From the IMG/VR virus record IMGVR_UViG_3300025387_000050, positions 1-31,951 of that record: DNA of 31,951 nt, one strand, 5' to 3'. The translations under genes were made by a program, and so were the position numbers. Every line of letters begins with the position of its first letter. Position 1 is the first letter of the stretch. The notes beneath the pieces are model-generated. The model did not search any database and was not told the origin of the DNA. It saw only the letters and a list, made by a program, of their open reading frames with translations. The DNA is from a virus. Taxonomy: Duplodnaviria; Caudoviricetes. This document shows positions 2,983 to 28,523 of this stretch, piece after piece.

Positions 2983-3206
2983 TAGTAATCTTGGCCATTA
3001 ACGGCACGCGCCGCACCTAAAAATTCGGCGTTGATTGGTGCATTGTGTTGCCAAGTAATTGGCGTTGTATTTTCTTTGGATGTAAACATAATAAAAGGGC
3101 GATTGCCTTTTAATAGTTCACGGGCAAAATCTAATGCTTGTTGAACCGTTGCAAACTCAAAGTGTTGCAATGTGTCTTGTGTTTCTAAAATGTATGATTT
3201 TTTCAT
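2982..3206 (-). CDS. First gene of the leftward early operon, hypothetical (74 aa)
   Basis: ORF track; TAGGAAG RBS-like sequence upstream. Confidence 0.7.
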   Translation of the reverse strand: MKKSYILETQDTLQHFEFATVQQALDFARELLKGNRPFIMFTSKENTTPITWQHNAPINAEFLGAARAVNGQDY

Positions 3207-3254
3207 TTGCTTGCTTCCTAAAAGACCACTACGATGTGTTGTGGATTGATGCTT

Positions 3255-3282
3255 ATTTTAAGCTAGATTAACTACCAGTCAA
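3255..3282 (-). promoter_or_regulatory. Leftward sigma70-like promoter
   Basis: TTGACT (3282-3277), 16-nt spacer, TAAAAT (3260-3255). Confidence 0.6.
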
Positions 3283-3372
3283 TGCTTTTTGTTAAGTAGT
3301 TTCCCTAATGTTGTATTTAGTCAACTTAATTGTTGTAAATCTGCATTACCAGTATAATTTAAGCATGATTAC
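3258..3372. promoter_or_regulatory. Three operator-like imperfect palindromes, consensus TTAAG-N4-(C/A)TTAA
   Basis: TTAAGctagATTAA 3258-3271, TTTAGtcaaCTTAA 3316-3329, TTAAGcatgATTAC 3359-3372. Confidence 0.5.
3330..3358 (+). promoter_or_regulatory. Rightward sigma70-like promoter for the Cro-like gene
   Basis: TTGTTG (3330-3335), 17-nt spacer, perfect TATAAT (3353-3358). Confidence 0.55.
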
Positions 3373-3529
3373 CAAAAAAGAAGCTATACAGTTTGCAGGG
3401 TCAGTTACAGAACTAGCCAAAATATTGGGTATTTCTAAAGCTGCTATTTCTCAATGGGGTGAAATTCCACCACAAGCAAGAATATGGCAAATGCAATCTT
3501 TACATCCTGAATGGTTTCTTTACAGATAA
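3365..3529 (+). CDS. cro: Cro-like HTH regulator (54 aa)
   Basis: MITKKEAIQFAGSVTELAKILGISKAAISQWGE HTH pattern; first rightward gene; start set at ATG 3365. Confidence 0.85.
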   Translation: MITKKEAIQFAGSVTELAKILGISKAAISQWGEIPPQARIWQMQSLHPEWFLYR

Positions 3530-3548
3530 TTTGTTTATAATATTTTGA

Positions 3549-3654
3549 AACGCTTGGCGGCGTTACTCGTAGTAGGGTTACACATGCTGTCTGCTGGTAC
3601 TACGCCAGTCCGCCAACGCCGAAAGGTGAGACAGCAGGTGTAGCCCTTTTTTTT
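3549..3654 (+). ncRNA. C4-antisense-like structured RNA with upstream complementary targets, ending in a U-tract
   Basis: Outer stem 3574-3592 pairs with 3629-3647; inner hairpins GCTGGT-ACTAC-GCCAGT and CGCC-GAAA-GGTG; CCGCCAA (3610-3616) complements TTGGCGG (3554-3560); TACTACG (3598-3604) complements CGTAGTA (3568-3574); T8 at 3647-3654. Confidence 0.7.
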
Positions 3655-3663
3655 GGGTTTTAT

Positions 3664-4392
3664 ATGCATTATTATCAGCATCATATTGGTGATTTTATAA
3701 AAGACACCGCATTTCTTACCAATGAAGAAGTAGGCATTTATTTAAAACTTCTTTGGCTTTATTACGATACTGAAAATCCTTTACCAAACGATATTTTTAC
3801 TCTTAGCATGAAAATAAATGCTAGGGACAATGAAGATATTGTTATTGGAATACTTAATATGTTTTTCAAATTGAAAGGCGAATATTGGTATCAAAGTCGT
3901 TGTGAATTAGAAATATCAGAATATCGAGATTTAATTAACGATAAATCTAAAGCAGGAAAAGCATCAGCTATTAAACGTGCGTTAAACAAACGATCAACAG
4001 ATGTTGAACAGGTGTTAAACATCTGTACAACAGATGAGCAACTAACCATAAACCAAGAACCAATAACCAATAACCATATATATATGGATTTTGAGAAAGT
4101 TCTAAAAGCCAAAAACAAACCCTTAACTCAAACTTTGCTTAACTCTATTCAAAAGGAAGCGGATAAAGCCAAAATTACTTTGGATGATGCGATTAAAGAA
4201 TGTTGCGTTAGGGGTTGGACAACTTTTAAGGCGGAATGGATATCCAATAAAGCCGATATTGTTCACCAAACCGTTCCATCATCTAAAGAACGCGATCCCG
4301 TGCTTGTTAAGTTGGAAGAAGATGCCAAAAAGGCCGTGGCCATGCCGGAAGATGTTAAGGTTAAGTTTCAAATGATTAAGGGGAGAAAATGA
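3664..4392 (+). CDS. Replication initiator, DUF1376/YdaU family
   Basis: MHYYQHHIGDF..DT..L...E.G.Y..LL..YY N-terminus; position after cro; internal iterons. Confidence 0.85.
   Translation: MHYYQHHIGDFIKDTAFLTNEEVGIYLKLLWLYYDTENPLPNDIFTLSMKINARDNEDIVIGILNMFFKLKGEYWYQSRCELEISEYRDLINDKSKAGKASAIKRALNKRSTDVEQVLNICTTDEQLTINQEPITNNHIYMDFEKVLKAKNKPLTQTLLNSIQKEADKAKITLDDAIKECCVRGWTTFKAEWISNKADIVHQTVPSSKERDPVLVKLEEDAKKAVAMPEDVKVKFQMIKGRK
3972..4078. repeat. Probable replication origin: 11-bp iterons followed by five 7-bp repeats
   Basis: AAC recurs at 3974, 3985, 3996, 4007, 4018, 4029 and 4040; AACCA(TA/AG/AT) occurs five times in tandem at 4044-4078. Confidence 0.75.
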
Positions 4393-5348
4393 ATGAGTTG
4401 GCTTTATTCGCAGGCGCTGGTGGAGGGATTCTTGGCGGGAAATTACTTGGATGGCGAACCGTGTGCGCCGTTGAATGGGAACCATACCCAGCAAGCGTAT
4501 TGTGCGCCCGACAAAATGACGGACTTCTCCCGCCTTTCCCGATTTGGGATGACGTTCAAACCTTTGACGGAAACCCGTGGAAAGGAATTGTTGATGTCAT
4601 ATCTGGGGGCTTTCCATGCCAGGACATTAGCGCAGCAGGAAAAGGCGCAGGAATTGACGGAGAGCGATCAGGAATGTGGGGAAAAATGGCAAGGATCATT
4701 CGTGAAGTACGACCCAAATACGTCTTTGTGGAAAACTCACCAATGCTCACTTCTAGGGGACTTGGACGAGTTCTTGGAGACTTGGCCAAAATGGGGTTTG
4801 ATGCGCGATGGGGAGTGCTGGGAGCAGCAGACGTTGGAGCAAACCATCAGAGGGACAGGATATGGATTGTTGCCAAATGGGATGGACAGTTTTCATACAT
4901 TCAACACAACAGGATTAGACGGTGGGAGCAACAGTCGAAAAGCCTTAAAAAAACGTATGGAAAATTGGCCAATGCCCGATGCGAATTGTGGAATGAGGGG
5001 GACACAAGAAAATTGGACACCAAAGAGGAAATCGGGGCATCAAGCACAATATTCGATAAATCAAGCAGTGAGAGATGCGGAAAAGATCAAATGGCCAACA
5101 CCAGTGAAATCAGATCATGCAGCGAGAAGACCAAGCAAGGGATGGCAAGGAAATTCAGATTTGCCGAGTGTGGTATGGACAGAAACTGGTGGCAGAGAGA
5201 ACCCGAGTTTGTCCCCCGCACAACTCAACGCGACATGGGTGGAATGGTTGATGGGTTGGCCGCTAGGGTGGACAGACTTAAAGCAATTGGAAACGGACAA
5301 GTTCCTCTTTGTGCAGCAACCGCATGGGAAATCCTAAGTGAAAATTGA
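4389..5348 (+). CDS. C5-cytosine DNA methyltransferase, catalytic (alpha) chain lacking motif IX
   Basis: Motif I LFAGAGG, IV GFPCQD, VI VENS, VIII QRDRIW, X LKAIGNGQVP. Confidence 0.92.
   Translation: MNELALFAGAGGGILGGKLLGWRTVCAVEWEPYPASVLCARQNDGLLPPFPIWDDVQTFDGNPWKGIVDVISGGFPCQDISAAGKGAGIDGERSGMWGKMARIIREVRPKYVFVENSPMLTSRGLGRVLGDLAKMGFDARWGVLGAADVGANHQRDRIWIVAKWDGQFSYIQHNRIRRWEQQSKSLKKTYGKLANARCELWNEGDTRKLDTKEEIGASSTIFDKSSSERCGKDQMANTSEIRSCSEKTKQGMARKFRFAECGMDRNWWQREPEFVPRTTQRDMGGMVDGLAARVDRLKAIGNGQVPLCAATAWEILSEN
4393..5337 (+). CDS. Overlapping +1-frame ORF, probable methyltransferase beta chain carrying motif IX
   Basis: 314 codons open; ends with LNATWVEWLMGWPLGWTD (motif IX-like); GGGAG lies 7 nt before its ATG. 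Confidence 0.75.
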   Translation: MSWLYSQALVEGFLAGNYLDGEPCAPLNGNHTQQAYCAPDKMTDFSRLSRFGMTFKPLTETRGKELLMSYLGAFHARTLAQQEKAQELTESDQECGEKWQGSFVKYDPNTSLWKTHQCSLLGDLDEFLETWPKWGLMRDGECWEQQTLEQTIRGTGYGLLPNGMDSFHTFNTTGLDGGSNSRKALKKRMENWPMPDANCGMRGTQENWTPKRKSGHQAQYSINQAVRDAEKIKWPTPVKSDHAARRPSKGWQGNSDLPSVVWTETGGRENPSLSPAQLNATWVEWLMGWPLGWTDLKQLETDKFLFVQQPHGKS

Positions 5349-5493
5349 TTTAATTGTTGAACACTATGCCAAACTAGCTTTAAAACCGGCTTGGATTGAT
5401 TATGTTCGCCATCAAGTTAAATTAATGGAACAAGAACCACAATTCAAAGGCATCGGAAAGTTAATAGCCCAACGCATTAAGGAATTAAAGTGA
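5338..5493 (+). CDS. 51-aa hypothetical (MKIDLIVEHYAKLALKPAWIDYVRHQV...)
   Basis: Read manually. GTG directly follows the TAA of 4393..5337; its stop overlaps the start of the resolvase gene (GTGA). Confidence 0.6.
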   Translation: MKIDLIVEHYAKLALKPAWIDYVRHQVKLMEQEPQFKGIGKLIAQRIKELK

Positions 5494-5951
5494 AATACTA
5501 CATAGGCTTTGATCCTGGCTTTTCCGGCGCATGGGGCGCTATCGATCAAAACGGTGAATACATTGCTTGCGGCGATATGATCCACACCGATCAATATATT
5601 GAAACCGAAAAGATATGGGATGAAATCACCGATATGCTTAACGGCAATGATTGTGAAATAACCCTTGAATGGGTTGCATCCATGCCAAACCAAGGGGTTT
5701 CATCAACCTTTAAGTTCGGAAGTGCCTTTGGGGCCGCTTTAGCGCTTGCACAACGCTTTAAAACACCTTGGCACCTAGTAACCCCTAGGGTTTGGAAAAA
5801 AGCGCTTAAATTGGATTCTGACAAGAAACAAAGCCTTGAATTGGCCCGCCGGTTATTTCCACGGGCACCGCTTAAACGAATCAAAGATAACGGCCGTGCG
5901 GAAGCATTGTTGATTGCTTATTATCAATTTACACAAACAAGGGGGTATTAA
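5490..5951 (+). CDS. RuvC-like Holliday junction resolvase
   Basis: IGFDPG, LEWV..MP.QGVSSTFKFG, VTPRVWKK and D.GRAEALLIA motifs. Confidence 0.85.
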   Translation: MKYYIGFDPGFSGAWGAIDQNGEYIACGDMIHTDQYIETEKIWDEITDMLNGNDCEITLEWVASMPNQGVSSTFKFGSAFGAALALAQRFKTPWHLVTPRVWKKALKLDSDKKQSLELARRLFPRAPLKRIKDNGRAEALLIAYYQFTQTRGY

Positions 5952-19685: not shown

Positions 19686-19910
19686 TTATCCAATAATTGC
19701 AGTTGATGTTTCACGATTAATTGTTAATGTGCCATCGCACACAATATTCCAATCTTCACTTTTAGAATCTTTTTCAGTTTGACAAGGAATATTAATTTTA
19801 ACGTTTTTAAATAAATATTCTTTTTCACCTTCAAAAACACGCCAACAATGATCCAAAGTTCCACGGCCTTCTTGACCCCTAGATTTATTGAATCTTATTG
19901 AATATTTCAT
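19686..19910 (-). CDS. Hypothetical protein (74 aa)
   Basis: ORF track; ATGA-coupled to the oxygenase gene. Confidence 0.7.
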   Translation of the reverse strand: MKYSIRFNKSRGQEGRGTLDHCWRVFEGEKEYLFKNVKINIPCQTEKDSKSEDWNIVCDGTLTINRETSTAIIG

Positions 19911-20611
19911 ATTATTTCAGCAGCAGGTAATACACAAGATATTTGTGGTGCCTGTTGAACTGTTAAATTGAAATGAACAAATTTGATTGGCTTTTCATTA
20001 GCGTGTCTAGTAAAGGAATGTGCCAACCAAGCATTTGAAAAAATCATCAAACCAGATTTTGGTTCAAAATTAATCATTTGACTTGCAGGTGTAGCCATAT
20101 TCATGTCTTGTTCGGGCAAACTGGATATGATTTTCCCTTGTCTTGGGTCGTGAAATACAACTCTTGACGAGTTTTCAGGAACTTCTACAAAGTAAAAACC
20201 AACAATTTGAGAACCAAATCCATGAACGTGTTGTTCCATAGCTGAATGTTTATGATGTTCTTGTGTCCACATTTCACTAAATGTAATCACTTTATCTTGC
20301 ATGGCATAACCTTGTTCAGACAAAATATTCCAAGCAGTTCCACCAACAAATTCAGCAAATGCTTTAATTCTAGGATCATCCGCAAAATTGCCAGACATCA
20401 TAACTGGATAAATTTCATCTAGCTGACGTTCAGCGTGTTGTTTAGCTAAAGATTCTTCAGAAACTAAATTAACAGATTCAATAAAATCAGGACGTTCAAT
20501 TAAATAAATTGGACATGGAAAGTGATAAGCAACTTGAAGTTGTGTGTTTTGAACAATTTCTTTTACTTGCTTTGCAGCTTTGCAAAATTTTTCATTTTTC
20601 ACTTTAGCCAT
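19907..20611 (-). CDS. 2OG-Fe(II) oxygenase-like protein (TIGR02466-type)
   Basis: FPCPIY, W.......MEQHVH (HxH), GFYF, FHDPR, P..G.MIF..WL.H and FNL motifs. Confidence 0.85.
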   Translation of the reverse strand: MAKVKNEKFCKAAKQVKEIVQNTQLQVAYHFPCPIYLIERPDFIESVNLVSEESLAKQHAERQLDEIYPVMMSGNFADDPRIKAFAEFVGGTAWNILSEQGYAMQDKVITFSEMWTQEHHKHSAMEQHVHGFGSQIVGFYFVEVPENSSRVVFHDPRQGKIISSLPEQDMNMATPASQMINFEPKSGLMIFSNAWLAHSFTRHANEKPIKFVHFNLTVQQAPQISCVLPAAEII

Positions 20612-20620
20612 GTTAGTTCC

Positions 20621-21133
20621 TTATGTTGTGGGCGTAGATGGCACAACAACCCAAACCCACGCAAAAAAATCAAATGTATATTGATTTCCATCATTGGGAT
20701 AGGGAGGAGTGTCTTTCCAATTACTTTCAGCACCGCACCAATATGTATAAATTTTTTGATCCAATTTAGTTTGGTCTTTTTCAGGTCTAGGAATTGGAGG
20801 CAAATAAGCGCAAGTTGCATCATCAAATGTCCACGCAGACCAATTTGATGCTTGAAATCTTTCAGACCATGCGGTTTTTATTTTTTGTTGCTTTGCTGAT
20901 TTTTCATCAGCAGTCATATCACGAATAGACCATACATCAGTCCAAACATTATTTACTTTGGAATATGTTGGGGTATTACTATCTAAAACTTGATATATTC
21001 CTAAAGTTGCGTTTGGAACTCTTACAAAAGGTTCCCAATCATTAGGTATTAAACCAAACGCCGCTACTAAATTATCATCATAAGCAGGATGATTTATTGG
21101 TTGCCCGTTTTCAATTTGAATATAAAGCGCCAT
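20621..21133 (-). CDS. Probable tail-fibre assembly/accessory protein (MALYIQIENGQPINHP...)
   Basis: Start at ATG 21133 (TAATG overlap); SAWTFD...C.Y.PPIPRP and PPYPNDGN.Y.F...W motifs. Confidence 0.6.
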   Translation of the reverse strand: MALYIQIENGQPINHPAYDDNLVAAFGLIPNDWEPFVRVPNATLGIYQVLDSNTPTYSKVNNVWTDVWSIRDMTADEKSAKQQKIKTAWSERFQASNWSAWTFDDATCAYLPPIPRPEKDQTKLDQKIYTYWCGAESNWKDTPPYPNDGNQYTFDFFAWVWVVVPSTPTT

Positions 21134-21939
21134 TATGGTGTTCCTACGCAAGTTGATGGGAATTGACGAGTGTTGCCAGGCCAAACAATACGAACTGCGC
21201 CATTAAATCCAACGCCATTATGATTACATTGGTTGCCACCACCGCCACCGCCATAATAACCCCCTGAACCAGCACAATAAGCATAACCATTAGAACCTGC
21301 ACTTCCCCCAGAACCAGCGCCACCACCATATGATACTGATGAATTTGATACGCCACCAGAACCAGAAGAACCTTGACCATACAAACCAACGCCACCACCG
21401 CCACCGCCGCTTTGAACATTAATGCAACCACAAAGAGGTAAATTGCTCCAAGCGCCGCCACCACCAGCGCCACCAGTTCCGGCATATCCATTATGATGGC
21501 CAGAATAACCGCCATTACCACCAGCGCCACTATAACCGCCAGCGCCGCCGCCGCCGCCATAGCATCCACCATTACCACCTAAATAATAAGCAGTTCCAAC
21601 ATTTCTGGAACAACATCCTGATACATTTTGATTGCCGGCAGTTAAAACAGAAGTGCTAATAAAAGTGCTTCGTTTTGTACCAGGTGTTCCGGAACCCGCA
21701 ATAACAGTATAAGAATTACCAGGGACAACTGTATAGTTATTCAAATAAGCCAAATTACCACCAGCGCTACCATGAGCGCCACAAGAACCACCGCCAACTG
21801 CAACAACAGAAACTTTTGTAACACCAGCAGGTGCAACCCATGTGTATGTTCCAGCGCCGCAACTTCCGTATGTCACAGAACCTGGAGGGGACCCAAAACT
21901 TCTTTGATTTTGAAAAACAGCAACAGTTGCGCCACTCAT
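21133..21939 (-). CDS. Glycine-rich tail-tip/adhesin protein with 10 cysteines
   Basis: GTYTWVAPAGVTKVSVVAVGGG...GAVRIVWPG framing of poly-Gly repeats; start at ATG 21939 (ATGA overlap). Confidence 0.75.
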   Translation of the reverse strand: MSGATVAVFQNQRSFGSPPGSVTYGSCGAGTYTWVAPAGVTKVSVVAVGGGSCGAHGSAGGNLAYLNNYTVVPGNSYTVIAGSGTPGTKRSTFISTSVLTAGNQNVSGCCSRNVGTAYYLGGNGGCYGGGGGAGGYSGAGGNGGYSGHHNGYAGTGGAGGGGAWSNLPLCGCINVQSGGGGGGVGLYGQGSSGSGGVSNSSVSYGGGAGSGGSAGSNGYAYCAGSGGYYGGGGGGNQCNHNGVGFNGAVRIVWPGNTRQFPSTCVGTP

Positions 21940-22667
21940 GTCAAACCACTCCCTGAAATTAACCAAGTTGTTGATGTCATTTTTACTGCTGTAGCCGATC
22001 CATATTGAGCTAAAGATCGTGATCCAGTTGTACCGGCACTTGACAAATACATTGTGTCAGTATTGATTGCAATTGTCACAACTTGTGAAGTCATATTAAT
22101 AAACGTTAAAGTTGTTCCAACAGGATAGGCAACGCTTGAGTTAGCAGGTATTGTGAATGTTCTAGCGTTTCCATCTGTTGATGGATGGAAAATAACTTTA
22201 CCGGCATCTGATAAAACCGCGGTGTATGCCGTAGATTGGCTATTAACTGGGATATTGATATAACCAACACCATTTGTGCCATCAACGGTGCAATTACTTA
22301 AATTTCCACTTGTAGGTGTTCCCAAAATAGGCGTTGTAAAAGATGGGCTTGTAGCTAATGCAACAACAGTTCCTGATCCGGTTGTCGAATAAGATGTTCC
22401 CCAAGCGCTTCCGGTGCTATTAGCTATTCCGGCACTTGGATATGTTTGTGCTGAAATGCTTGACCATGTTCCATCACCACGCAAATATGTTGAACTTGAT
22501 GGTGTTCCGGTTGCGGATAACATGGTAACGGTAACCGTTCCTGTATCACCGGTTGTAACCATTGTTCCGGTAACGGCGGGAACGGTGATGGTTAGTGATG
22601 ATGCGGTGTTTGTTCCACTTAGGGCAATTTGACCGCCCGATGTTGCCGAAAAGACTAATTGGCCCAT
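21936..22667 (-). CDS. Tail fibre protein (243 aa)
   Basis: Ser/Thr/Gly-rich; TYLRGDGTW, PILGTP.SG.L.NC and TTWLISG.GLT motifs. Confidence 0.75.
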   Translation of the reverse strand: MGQLVFSATSGGQIALSGTNTASSLTITVPAVTGTMVTTGDTGTVTVTMLSATGTPSSSTYLRGDGTWSSISAQTYPSAGIANSTGSAWGTSYSTTGSGTVVALATSPSFTTPILGTPTSGNLSNCTVDGTNGVGYINIPVNSQSTAYTAVLSDAGKVIFHPSTDGNARTFTIPANSSVAYPVGTTLTFINMTSQVVTIAINTDTMYLSSAGTTGSRSLAQYGSATAVKMTSTTWLISGSGLT

Positions 22668-25438: not shown

Positions 25439-25765
25439 TTATGCGGCATTAGTTGGTAGAACGGTGCCTTCCAAACGATCAACACCCAATGTGTAAACAC
25501 CGGATGCGGGCGTTGCGGATGAACCCGTGCTATTTGTAAACTGAATTGACAATGTGTTAGCGGCAGAAACCCAAACGTTTGCAATGCCAACACCGGTTGT
25601 TTGCGCACCTTGCAATGAAATATTTACGAAATCATTAACCACAAGGCCAGGAATCGTAAATGTTTGTGTTGCTTGTGAACCGGAAACCGCTGCGGGTGTC
25701 AAAGTAGGGTAAACAAGGAAAGAATTGAGGATATTACCTCTAAGGATCGTAGTTTGTAATGACAT
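25439..25765 (-). CDS. Hypothetical structural protein (108 aa)
   Basis: AAGGAG RBS; beta-rich. Confidence 0.7.
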   Translation of the reverse strand: MSLQTTILRGNILNSFLVYPTLTPAAVSGSQATQTFTIPGLVVNDFVNISLQGAQTTGVGIANVWVSAANTLSIQFTNSTGSSATPASGVYTLGVDRLEGTVLPTNAA

Positions 25766-25800
25766 AAAAACTCCTTTGCGTTGATTGTATCTTGAAAAAT

Positions 25801-25831
25801 AAAAAAAGCCACCCGTTTTGTGGATGGCTTT
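25801..25831 (-). terminator. Rho-independent terminator after the capsid genes
   Basis: Minus strand AAAGCCATCC-ACAAAAC-GGGTGGC-TTTTTTT. Confidence 0.8.
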
Positions 25832-25850
25832 CCCCTTATTTACTCACAAA

Positions 25851-26291
25851 TTAGGGTAAAAATGTAAGGTCGTAACCGTAGACAAATACGTCACAAGTCG
25901 CGGCAATCGTAGTTCCAACGTTCACATAAATGTTAGTTGGGCTAGAAATAGCGGTGTTAGGATTTGTTGCGGTTGAAATGGTCACATAAGGGCCACCGGT
26001 GTTGCTTGTTAAAGCGGCGGTAGTCAATACGGTTGAACCGGTTTGGCCCGTTCCGGTGTAAACACCAACGGTTGCCGTTGCAATAGTGGTTGTTGCACCG
26101 CTAGAGTTTAGGCCGTTTGTGATTACAACGCTTGTGGGCACAAATTTAGACACATCCAACACAACCATAGCGGTATCACCCGCTAGGGCCAAGTTTACGG
26201 ATTGTGCGGAAGCAATCAAACGCAACGCTTGGTTTGTGGCCAAGTTTTGTGGGTGATTGCTTACTGTGGTTGCGGGTCCTGGATTACTCAT
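25851..26291 (-). CDS. Probable capsid decoration/minor head protein
   Basis: AAGGAG RBS; directly after the coat gene and before the terminator. Confidence 0.65.
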   Translation of the reverse strand: MSNPGPATTVSNHPQNLATNQALRLIASAQSVNLALAGDTAMVVLDVSKFVPTSVVITNGLNSSGATTTIATATVGVYTGTGQTGSTVLTTAALTSNTGGPYVTISTATNPNTAISSPTNIYVNVGTTIAATCDVFVYGYDLTFLP

Positions 26292-26313
26292 GTTAATTAC
26301 TCCTTAATTTAGT

Positions 26314-27558
26314 TTAGGCGGCAACGCGGCAAGCCAATTCGGGATACAAAGGTGCCCATCCGTACAACACATCCAAACGAGTTGGAATTGAATCGTTGTT
26401 GATGGTGTACTGACGTACAACACGCATTGAAAGTCCGATTTCTTTATCGGAAGCACGGCCCGCAAAATGTACACCTTCAGGCAATTCGAGATCGGCTACT
26501 GCCAAGCAGAATGCGTTACGGTGCATGATGATGTTTTGGGGTGAAACGGTTCCGCTATTGTTGAACGGTGTAACGGCGGATGCACCGGCGTTAGTAACGC
26601 TAACGTTTTGGAATTGACCGCTTGTAATCACGGCAGGGCTAACTGTTACGCTAGTTGTGCCGGATGTTGCAACCGTGGCGGCTTGTGTAACAACAAAGTT
26701 TCTCAACTTGTTGGAACCATAGGCTTGGCGGTTTTGTGGGTTAACGGCATACACGCCCGCGATTTGGATCACATCACCAACGTTCAAATTACCGGCGGCC
26801 GTAGTGGCGCTCAGTGCGATTGTTGATGTTTGTGCCCATCCAGATGTTAAAAATCCGGTTGCGGTGCTTGTATTGCACGATAAAACGGCCGTAGGGCTAT
26901 TGCCAAAGGTTTGGCTAACCACGTTCTGGTCCATTTTCCAGTTCATTCCAGCGGAATCCCTGCCCATCAGGCCCTTGCGATATTGTTCGCCAATGGCTTC
27001 TTGTGGAACAAACAAGCCTTTTAGTGAATCAACAATCGTTGCGGATGTGAAAGGTTCAACAATACATGAACGGCGGCCATCACGGGGTGCGCCTTCAGCG
27101 TCCAAGTATGCGGCAGCGGTCAAATATGTAATCAAACCGGTTGGGGGCGTTCCGGCAACACCAACAATATTAGCCGTGTTGTTCTTGGCCATAACCAATC
27201 CATCACGGTCTATCTTATTGGCAATGGCGGCCACAGCGGGTTTCAAAACACGGTCCGAAAACATGTCGAGGCTCAAAGCCAAGTCTTGGGTCGTGAACTG
27301 GGTATCAACGTGGAATTGCGTTGCCAATGTTACTGGCACGCTTGTCTCGTTGAAGTCTTCAACATTCAATGCGGGACCCGTGGTACCGATAAAGCGACCA
27401 GGTCTCCTCACATTGACGGTATTGCCGATCTTCGCGCCAACTACTGCGAACTGGTCATCATAGTTGCGGTCAACTTCGCTTGTGAACGTAAGTTCATTTT
27501 CCAAAACCATCAGAGCTTCGTTGGTGATTTTGGATATCGTTAAGAGATTATTACTCAT
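26314..27558 (-). CDS. Major capsid protein, P22 coat (gp5) family
   Basis: MSNNLLTISKITNEALMVLENEL...KIG.TVNVRRP...RLDVLYGW.PLYPELACR. Confidence 0.93.
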   Translation of the reverse strand: MSNNLLTISKITNEALMVLENELTFTSEVDRNYDDQFAVVGAKIGNTVNVRRPGRFIGTTGPALNVEDFNETSVPVTLATQFHVDTQFTTQDLALSLDMFSDRVLKPAVAAIANKIDRDGLVMAKNNTANIVGVAGTPPTGLITYLTAAAYLDAEGAPRDGRRSCIVEPFTSATIVDSLKGLFVPQEAIGEQYRKGLMGRDSAGMNWKMDQNVVSQTFGNSPTAVLSCNTSTATGFLTSGWAQTSTIALSATTAAGNLNVGDVIQIAGVYAVNPQNRQAYGSNKLRNFVVTQAATVATSGTTSVTVSPAVITSGQFQNVSVTNAGASAVTPFNNSGTVSPQNIIMHRNAFCLAVADLELPEGVHFAGRASDKEIGLSMRVVRQYTINNDSIPTRLDVLYGWAPLYPELACRVAA

Positions 27559-27581
27559 TTGATTTCCTTTGAATTAAAAAA

Positions 27582-28472
27582 CTATCGAATTTTTCCCGCT
27601 TTACGCGCTTCTTTCCACGCTTGGTATGTGCCGTGAAATTCACCACTAGAATTAATGGGAATATCCGCAACACCACCACTTGGCTTCAATCCACGCACCG
27701 GTGCGGGTGCTTTACTTGTCTTAACCACAGTTTCCTTAGCCGGTTCGGCCTTTTCGTATAGCTTTTCCAACTTTCCCAATTCAACCAACGCTTTGCGGGT
27801 AGGCATGGCCGCCAACTTTTGCGCATATTCCAAATCTTCCGCTAGGTGATATAGGATTCTTGGGCCTACATCGGATTCCAATATGGAATCACGGATTTCA
27901 TCGGAAACAACAACATTAGCCGTTGAAACCATATCATCGTAATCGGGCAATTCCGCCTTCACTTTGTCCAACTTTTCCGTCCAAGATTGGATAACCTTTT
28001 GACGTTCTTCGTTGGCTTTCCGTGTGGCTTCTTGTTGATCCCTTTCACGCAATGCCTTTTCCGTAGAAAATTCCGCTAATGCCTTTGCATATTCAAACGC
28101 ATCTTGGAACTGCCCTGGTTGTGGTTCATTATCAACGCTCGGCTTTTGTGGTGCCGCCTGTTGCTCTAACGCCTTCAACCTCGCTTCCAACGTTGCCCTA
28201 GCTTGGCGTTCTGCTTCCAGATTTTGCTCGGCTAGTTTCCGTTGTTTAGTCAATTCGGAAAATCTTCGTTCTAACTTCGGATTCGCCTTCTTTTCTTCTG
28301 TGGGGTTGGCTTCTTCATGCGCTTCGGGTTCATTCTCAACCACTTCGAATGATGGCTCGGGAGTTGTCTCAACCGCCACATCATCCGTTTGGTTAGCTAA
28401 ACCTAAACGATTTGCATAAAATTCCGCCGCATTTTCGCTAGTGAGCACTTGGCCCGCTTCTTTTTCAGACAT
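27582..28472 (-). CDS. Scaffolding protein
   Basis: Acidic coiled-coil protein before the coat gene; basic C-terminal helix YQAWKEARKAGKIR. Confidence 0.85.
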   Translation of the reverse strand: MSEKEAGQVLTSENAAEFYANRLGLANQTDDVAVETTPEPSFEVVENEPEAHEEANPTEEKKANPKLERRFSELTKQRKLAEQNLEAERQARATLEARLKALEQQAAPQKPSVDNEPQPGQFQDAFEYAKALAEFSTEKALRERDQQEATRKANEERQKVIQSWTEKLDKVKAELPDYDDMVSTANVVVSDEIRDSILESDVGPRILYHLAEDLEYAQKLAAMPTRKALVELGKLEKLYEKAEPAKETVVKTSKAPAPVRGLKPSGGVADIPINSSGEFHGTYQAWKEARKAGKIR

Positions 28473-28523
28473 AGGTTACCCTAAGAATTAACCCCGTATA
28501 CCTTACGGGTAAGGTTTGTGTAA

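Follow-up and report, generated by a model that had tools for sequence, protein, structure and literature searches.

The window analysed here, meaning the whole stretch of DNA, is a 31,951-base virus record that is 93% complete and carries P22-like portal and coat genes. The single PF00145 match in the whole window falls in a gene where two reading frames, A (alpha) and B (beta), overlap on the same strand. The features of the locus are:

3664..4392, plus strand: upstream replication gene (DUF1376, primosomal-type)
4380..4385, plus strand: Shine-Dalgarno-like GGGGAG common to the A and B starts, from the sequence
4389..5348, plus strand: ORF A, 319 aa, putative catalytic chain with motifs I-VIII and X (PF00145, 4.7e-34; phrog_363)
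4393..5337, plus strand: ORF B, 314 aa, in the +1 frame (phrog_1008, 1.3e-23; open in 110/111 relatives)
4393..4680, plus strand: N-terminal extension of B, residues ~1-96, absent from the EcoHK31I-type beta; stop-free, with low fourfold divergence
4605..4622, plus strand: A motif IV, GGFPCQ, with catalytic Cys77 (G74, F75, P76 and C77 invariant, n=117 sequences)
4681..4872, plus strand: B residues ~97-160, homologous to residues ~3-69 of the EcoHK31I-type beta according to profile comparisons; in M.EcoHK31I, removing this segment of beta weakens its association with alpha (PMC2836561)
4884..5255, plus strand: A variable region, residues ~166-289, open unconserved filler (low pLDDT, low identity)
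4891..4965, plus strand: first module of B, residues 167-191, headed by FHTF where its module family (number 0, with 58 members) has FHTP
4966..5091, plus strand: second module of B, residues 192-233, headed by WPMP where its module family (number 2, with 34 members) has WPTP
5092..5223, plus strand: B module 3, residues 234-277, head WPTP (module family 10, 13 members)
5224..5277, plus strand: B motif IX, LNATWVEWLMGWPLGWTD, aligning to MLPSEYERLQGFPENWT of the EcoHK31I-type beta
5274..5336, plus strand: A motif X (RLKAIGNGQV helix; G301, N302 and Q304 invariant)
5338..5493, plus strand: 51-aa ORF beginning directly 3' of the B stop
5490..5951, plus strand: downstream Holliday junction resolvase-like gene (phrog_1770, 6.5e-26)

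The A gene is 960 bases long, and the two starts are 4 nt apart, with both frames open over 945 nt, as had been claimed from the sequence alone. The TGA of the upstream replication gene (4390-4392) overlaps the A start as ATGA and abuts the B ATG, and a stop codon stands immediately 5' of the B ATG in 206 of 227 distinct relatives. The spacing from GGAG (4382-4385) is 3 nt to the A ATG and 7 nt to the B ATG, again in agreement with the original prediction; in 104 of 192 relatives the Shine-Dalgarno-like core ends 4-5 nt 5' of the A start (8-9 nt of the B start). Judging from this arrangement, the starts of A and B may be translationally coupled to the replication gene. Among relatives the A start varies (ATG, GTG, TTG or farther upstream), and the B ATG lies 14 nt 5' of motif I in 149/149 loci. 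One contig of public run X4, possibly the sample of origin, spans 4745-5494 with zero differences from the window. RNA run X21 yielded short contigs of relatives only and shows no transcription, start or strand. The 51-aa ORF matched no Pfam family; in two related loci (L047 and L156) a sequence resembling it likewise lies 3' of B.

All of motifs I, IV (PC), VI (ENV/S), VIII and X of C5-cytosine DNA methyltransferases (C5-MTases) are found in A, which carries FAGAGG, GGFPC, ENS, RDR and GNGQV, and its residues 4-162 match HhaI in sequence comparison. The AlphaFold2 model of A is confident for residues 1-165 and 300-319, and most of residues 180-290 have pLDDT below 50. Against HhaI the model gives Z 22.4 and rmsd 2.1 with 181/327 residues aligned; merely ~181-196 residues of HhaI and HaeIII are matched, with disorder in between. 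A/B is predicted, and likely, to be a 5-methylcytosine-forming DNA methyltransferase. A does not have the one-chain C5-MTase organization, in which a single chain holds motifs I-VIII and X together with the target recognition domain (TRD) and motif IX: here the +1 frame holds motif IX, and the A variable region is unconserved. The original prediction that A has motifs I, IV, VI, VIII and X without IX, and that its variable region is filler, is therefore borne out. Motif X is in the same ORF as the A core in 145/149 loci, repeats included.

Is the overprinted frame real? When A was recoded synonymously with the codon usage of the phage, the +1 frame stayed open over the whole gene in 0/20000 trials, and over codons 2-163 only in 1.5e-4 of trials. 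Two scans and the window supplied 158 loci, of which 149 (repeats among them) were evaluable; clustering at 95% core identity reduced these to 111 non-redundant relatives. B is open across A in 148/149 loci (71/72 of those retrieved by an A query) and in 110/111 clustered relatives, the exception being L110, with a TGA at B codon 164. The stops in close homologues that would have spoken against B are absent apart from that one. Over 160 core codons the 111 relatives contain 0 stops in the +1 frame versus 1035 in the +2 frame, and none of the 19 core codon pairs that could take a synonymous +1 stop does so. We conclude that the A/B gene holds two conserved full-length coding frames. Phages S9-5 of Salmonella, ABMM1 of Acinetobacter, ZQ26 of Vibrio and Gerry of Ralstonia have this layout too, as do 52 of the 62 evaluable GTDB loci (of 80). 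A strict motif pattern made 39/80 and 30/65 loci evaluable in two groups; with a relaxed one, motif IV together with a +1 motif IX was found in 362/427 loci. The sets of relatives were ranked by similarity, mostly from B-type queries, and so do not give the share among all phage MTases. Broken copies also occur: A stops before motif X in L042 and L126, and the frames are out of register in L372.

It had been expected that gene callers would drop B, which holds only in part. B is often called, being matched by 7578/8000 scored candidates of a predicted-protein collection, represented by phrog_1008 and annotated in Ralstonia phage Gerry, where A is unannotated; however, A alone is annotated in the 3 other GenBank phages examined. 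Searches of B against Pfam, NCBIfam and PDB gave no match (nothing under E 0.06 among PDB sequences), Pfam over 117 B sequences gave no consistent family and no PF00145 match, and an Atlas search returned unnamed viral clusters only. Modelled alone, B reached a low-confidence pLDDT of 57 and pTM of 0.26.

The N-terminal part of B can be compared with relatives having a short B, which provide the better control since their first 40 codons are single-coding. These codons are without a +1 stop in 118/118 whole-gene relatives versus 1/23 short-B relatives, and their divergence at fourfold sites is 0.48-0.50 in the former versus 0.67-0.70 in the latter, so that the N-terminal part of B is under constraint and the reduced synonymous variability sought as a check on B is indeed seen. 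At 12-16% protein distance, fourfold sites of the A core and of flanking genes diverge by 0.32 versus 0.49 (pairs not independent); at 2-8% core and flanks are nearly alike (9 control pairs). On the other side, where core residues of B depart from the majority, the changes are no more conservative than a mutation model predicts (P 0.06-0.43). The N-terminal extension of B is possibly an added contact with alpha.

Downstream of the core, the burden of conservation shifts to B. The FHTF, WPMP and WPTP segments (residues 167, 192 and 234) and LNATWVEWLMGWPLGWTD at 5224-5277 are present in B as first described. Cutting at the xPTP-type head, so that the head pattern itself defined the cut, divided 224 distinct B sequences into 448 modules of 25-45 residues, which group into 101 clusters and occur in 133 arrangements. 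For each of the 16 clusters printed, it is mainly at B third codon positions that members differ (0.42-0.67 versus 0.05-0.31 per codon), and identity over the modules is 0.68-0.92 in B versus 0.24-0.54 in A, which places the conserved segments of this region in B. In other words, the variable region is under selection in B, with A merely open there. Among 118 diverse B sequences, 1, 2, 3 and 4 modules are found in 46, 38, 23 and 4, respectively, and none in 7. In one contig of run X17, 365 nt between 4870 and 5236 are replaced by 356 nt with the frame kept. Beyond the modules, B motif IX ends 29 nt 5' of the motif X Asn in 117/117 sequences.

Two module heads of the window are rare, FHTFN (1/42) and WPMPD (1/20; positions 4900-4901 and 4973), and close relatives from the X13 and X17 runs bear the family head residues at modules 1 and 2. 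These residues suggest that modules 1 and 2 of the window may be silent. 'Pseudo' domains exist in Bacillus phage MTases.

A two-chain enzyme with a nested second chain has a precedent. M.EcoHK31I is reportedly an E. coli enzyme specific for YGGCCR (Lee, Kam and Shaw, 1995). According to the accessible text of PMC2836561, its beta chain lies wholly within another frame of alpha and carries motif IX, it functions from a separate plasmid, and removal of at least 42 of its N-terminal residues weakens alpha-beta association. The same text assigns the TRD to alpha, and the available part of PMC3404938 terms it predicted. Using the beta primer given in the accessible supplement of PMC2836561, we located locus L429, whose EcoHK31I type is assigned from that primer and not from the original record; the primer matches 81/5426 complete E. 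coli genomes and had no match in a search of plasmids. L429 encodes an alpha of 309 aa and, beginning at alpha codon 104 in the +1 frame, a beta of 176 aa; the starts of both agree with the primers. RefSeq annotates alpha there and leaves beta out, and a convergent NotI-family endonuclease gene is present (L429:1514-3380).

The B family profile scored 23.0 bits against the EcoHK31I-type beta, compared with 9.2 for the best of 1000 shuffles, aligning the pre-module region to beta 25-64 and B motif IX to MLPSEYERLQGFPENWT. The reverse test gave 10.9 versus 5.4, hhalign gave E 6e-4 and probability 28, and beta residues 115-174 match PF00145 positions 234-298. Since both pairs overlap in the same frame, the similarity of B to beta could in part be a shadow of that between A and alpha. 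Nevertheless, by these profile comparisons B is homologous to the EcoHK31I-type beta, including motif IX and in the same frame, and what the original prediction offered as an analogy stands as homology.

The two systems share a catalytic chain that holds motifs I-VIII plus X, together with a +1-nested second chain with motif IX, and their offsets from IX to X are comparable (29 nt here, 35 nt in the EcoHK31I type). They differ in the second chain (a beta of 176 aa from alpha codon 104, versus 314 aa from A codon 2) and in their neighbours: L429 adjoins a restriction endonuclease gene, whereas no cognate restriction gene was found among the scanned neighbours of A/B. A further difference is in the variable region, which is under selection in alpha for the EcoHK31I type and in B here. 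In 61 distinct EcoHK31I-type loci (from the 81), identity over alpha 226-250 is 0.91 in alpha versus 0.46 in beta; this segment, which has a TL motif, holds GETYTLD in 48 of the 61, and almost none of them has the beta frame open over the first codons. The opposite identity patterns indicate a shared split with the variable region conserved in opposite frames. A/B thus lacks the EcoHK31I-type combination of a TRD in alpha and a short beta, and what is new relative to M.EcoHK31I is the whole-gene B and a variable region selected in the B frame.

Nature also provides one-chain relatives. In L328, L337 and L338 (3/427 loci), motifs I-VIII, xPTP modules, motif IX and motif X lie in one ORF (one-chain MTases at L328:377-1459, L337:784-2043 and L338:559-1971), and both other frames contain stops over the modules. 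Because their order is VIII-modules-IX-X, the modules occupy the canonical place of the TRD. Among 92 candidates, none was a longer fused form of B 160-300, which is weak evidence. In L294:811-1578, an A-type core reads on into one module plus motif IX, ending short of motif X; this looks like a single frame change.

Taken together, these observations lead us to favor, with a probability of about 0.75, the reading that A and B form a two-chain orphan phage C5-MTase in which target recognition is likely the task of the overprinted chain. That two separate chains are made seems highly probable. A would provide the SAM-binding and catalytic domain (I-VIII and X); B would contribute motif IX and probably recognise the target. 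The two would be translated from one mRNA and one ribosome-binding site through starts 4 nt apart. Selection acts on both frames over codons 1-165, on B alone over the modules, on B at motif IX and mainly on A at motif X; over the modules all that A needs is an open frame leading to motif X. The chains might associate through B 97-160. The xPTP modules are swapped in frame between phages; that they are TRDs is probable, and tandem modules would then give several specificities; the chance that more than one specificity is active is only slightly short of even. By analogy with other phage enzymes, methylation likely shields the phage DNA from host restriction. An anti-restriction role is established for orphan phage MTases.

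An alternative, to which we give somewhat less than an even chance, keeps the two chains and has the modules combine into a single composite recognition domain, or has just one of them active, so that the enzyme has a single specificity, with modules 1 and 2 maybe silent. The single module of 46 of the 118 diverse B sequences fits this view, as do the rare heads of modules 1 and 2 next to the usual ones in the X13 and X17 relatives and, judging from the accessible part of PMC2790894, the use by HhaI-type TRDs of two loops around a TL dipeptide. However, the same module family is seen alone and at differing ranks in arrays, each time conserved in B, as would be expected of self-contained units.

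It is unlikely that B is a real regulator or accessory subunit, with A binding DNA itself with little sequence specificity. The one-chain relatives give this idea some weight, as they retain, beside a complete main chain, a shorter +1 ORF with the B N-terminal domain and a module, ending in a stop; hence the B N-terminal domain may have a further role. Yet the variable region of A is neither conserved nor folded, and B is the chain with motif IX, just as beta supplies it in M.EcoHK31I. Ribosomal frameshifting into one fusion, running through A to motif VIII, the B modules and IX and back to A for X, is less likely still. The natural one-chain genes share that order and there are slippery-looking runs in the cassette (e.g. 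A7 at 4947), but two opposite shifts would be required, and the fixed B ATG, the stop-free first 40 codons and the open A filler with motif X in the same ORF would be left unexplained; moreover, M.EcoHK31I works from separate genes (accessible text of PMC2836561). Finally, a shadow frame held open by A conservation, in whose favor are the highly conserved A core, which narrows the +1 frame, and the negative residue-similarity test, is refuted by the avoidance of the 19 possible stops, by the +1 stops of short-B relatives in the same stretch (22/23) and by selection on the module region in B and not in A, leaving it a negligible chance.

Returning to the two-chain MTase, its closest functional parallels would be the C5-MTases of Bacillus phages (M.SPRI, phi3T, SPbeta mtbP and M.H2I), which according to the available part of PMC8936443 are likewise orphan and have tandem exchangeable units before motif IX, the tandem TRDs conferring several specificities. 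Those enzymes, however, are one chain in one frame, and several specificities have been shown for them, whereas in A/B they are only presumed. The TL motif of Bacillus TRDs lies inside the unit; xPTP modules as cut have their head at the start. The B-tail profile placed the SPbeta MTase 27th among 500 shuffles, and profile-profile comparison of modules with 116 Bacillus tails was not significant, a test in which the true motif X of A failed too; by these comparisons the xPTP modules are without detectable sequence likeness to known TRDs. M.AquI, in the accessible text of PMC3404938, similarly consists of two polypeptides, the small one carrying motif IX as well as the distal variable region, but it has motif X in the small subunit, while here motif X is in A.

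Both nested ORFs are annotated in GenBank in several Paenibacillus phages, and in P. larvae phage Bloom both are annotated as MTases. The short-type B profile scores 80.6 bits against the window B; the short-type B starts ~16-87 codons after motif I (0/30 whole-gene), in contrast to the whole-gene B of the window. The available part of PMC6070908 lists two MTase genes without discussing nesting. We found no description of the whole-gene overlap or of the modules in the literature searched, subscription papers lying outside its coverage: the overlap is not described in PMC4472890, nor in the accessible portions of PMC6070908, PMC11855218, PMC9957025, PMC2884959, PMC4260502, PMC3142249 and bioRxiv 10.1101/2025.01.02.630785.

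It is tempting to go one step further, if only tentatively, and regard A/B as a member of a very large phage family of multispecific MTases in which the overprinted chain bears about a hundred shuffled recognition modules of a type not known among solved structures, recognition being placed in the opposite frame from M.EcoHK31I and point changes silencing modules, perhaps 1 and 2 here. As a part of the same tentative picture, intermediates might survive in the form of the short beta, the whole-gene beta and the one-chain enzyme with a residual +1 partner. A 945-nt same-strand overlap whose two frames would serve one enzyme, and along which selection moves between the frames, is a natural test bed for the origin of overprinted genes and the division of function between them. 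If the modules set specificity, the search for targets of phage methylation has looked in the wrong frame, the family's thousands of clusters offer many new 5mC specificities, and restriction arms races between phage and host could be tested directly by swapping modules. An enzyme that is split by nature and has recognition units open to exchange might also serve as a tool for targeted methylation, a use already made of M.EcoHK31I.

The composition of the cassette deserves a separate comment. Its richness in CAG/GAG/GAC was noticed early and is real: counting both strands, the A/B gene has 79 such trinucleotides, whereas the median for stretches of 960 nt is 12. The genome outside 4389-5348 avoids GAG/CTC, GAC/GTC and CAG/CTG (observed/expected 0.30-0.40), and 63/978 Gln, Glu and Asp codons outside the cassette use the avoided trinucleotides. 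This avoidance, common to merely 3/144 relatives' flanks, possibly reflects avoidance of host restriction or methylation motifs. The richness had been taken as a sign of recent acquisition, which is not needed to explain the core: there, 36/37 sites cannot be removed silently in both frames, and dual coding alone accounts for the richness. In the module region, by contrast, 24/27 sites are silently removable yet kept (72 per kb; family median 75), and the corresponding region of L087, from an avoiding genome, has few of them. Recent import of the module region is therefore plausible.

Several further words are depleted in the window: CCCGG/CCGGG (0 versus 42 expected) and GCCGGC (2 versus 31), with TGATCA, CCATGG, GGCGCC and GGATCC absent. 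No tie between the under-represented CCCGG, TGATCA and GCCGGC and the A/B enzyme was established. Trinucleotide avoidance is also lacking at 20001-22500, 25501-28500, 1-500 and 3001-4000 (most bins 26-68 per kb, versus 2-22 elsewhere). These stretches, possibly recent imports as well, include the gene for a 2OG-Fe(II) oxygenase (19907-20611) and the coat gene. On the minus strand, a Gly-rich 277-aa gene (21133-21966) contains in another frame a 144-codon ORF (21144-21578), which is probably a by-product of GGN codons.
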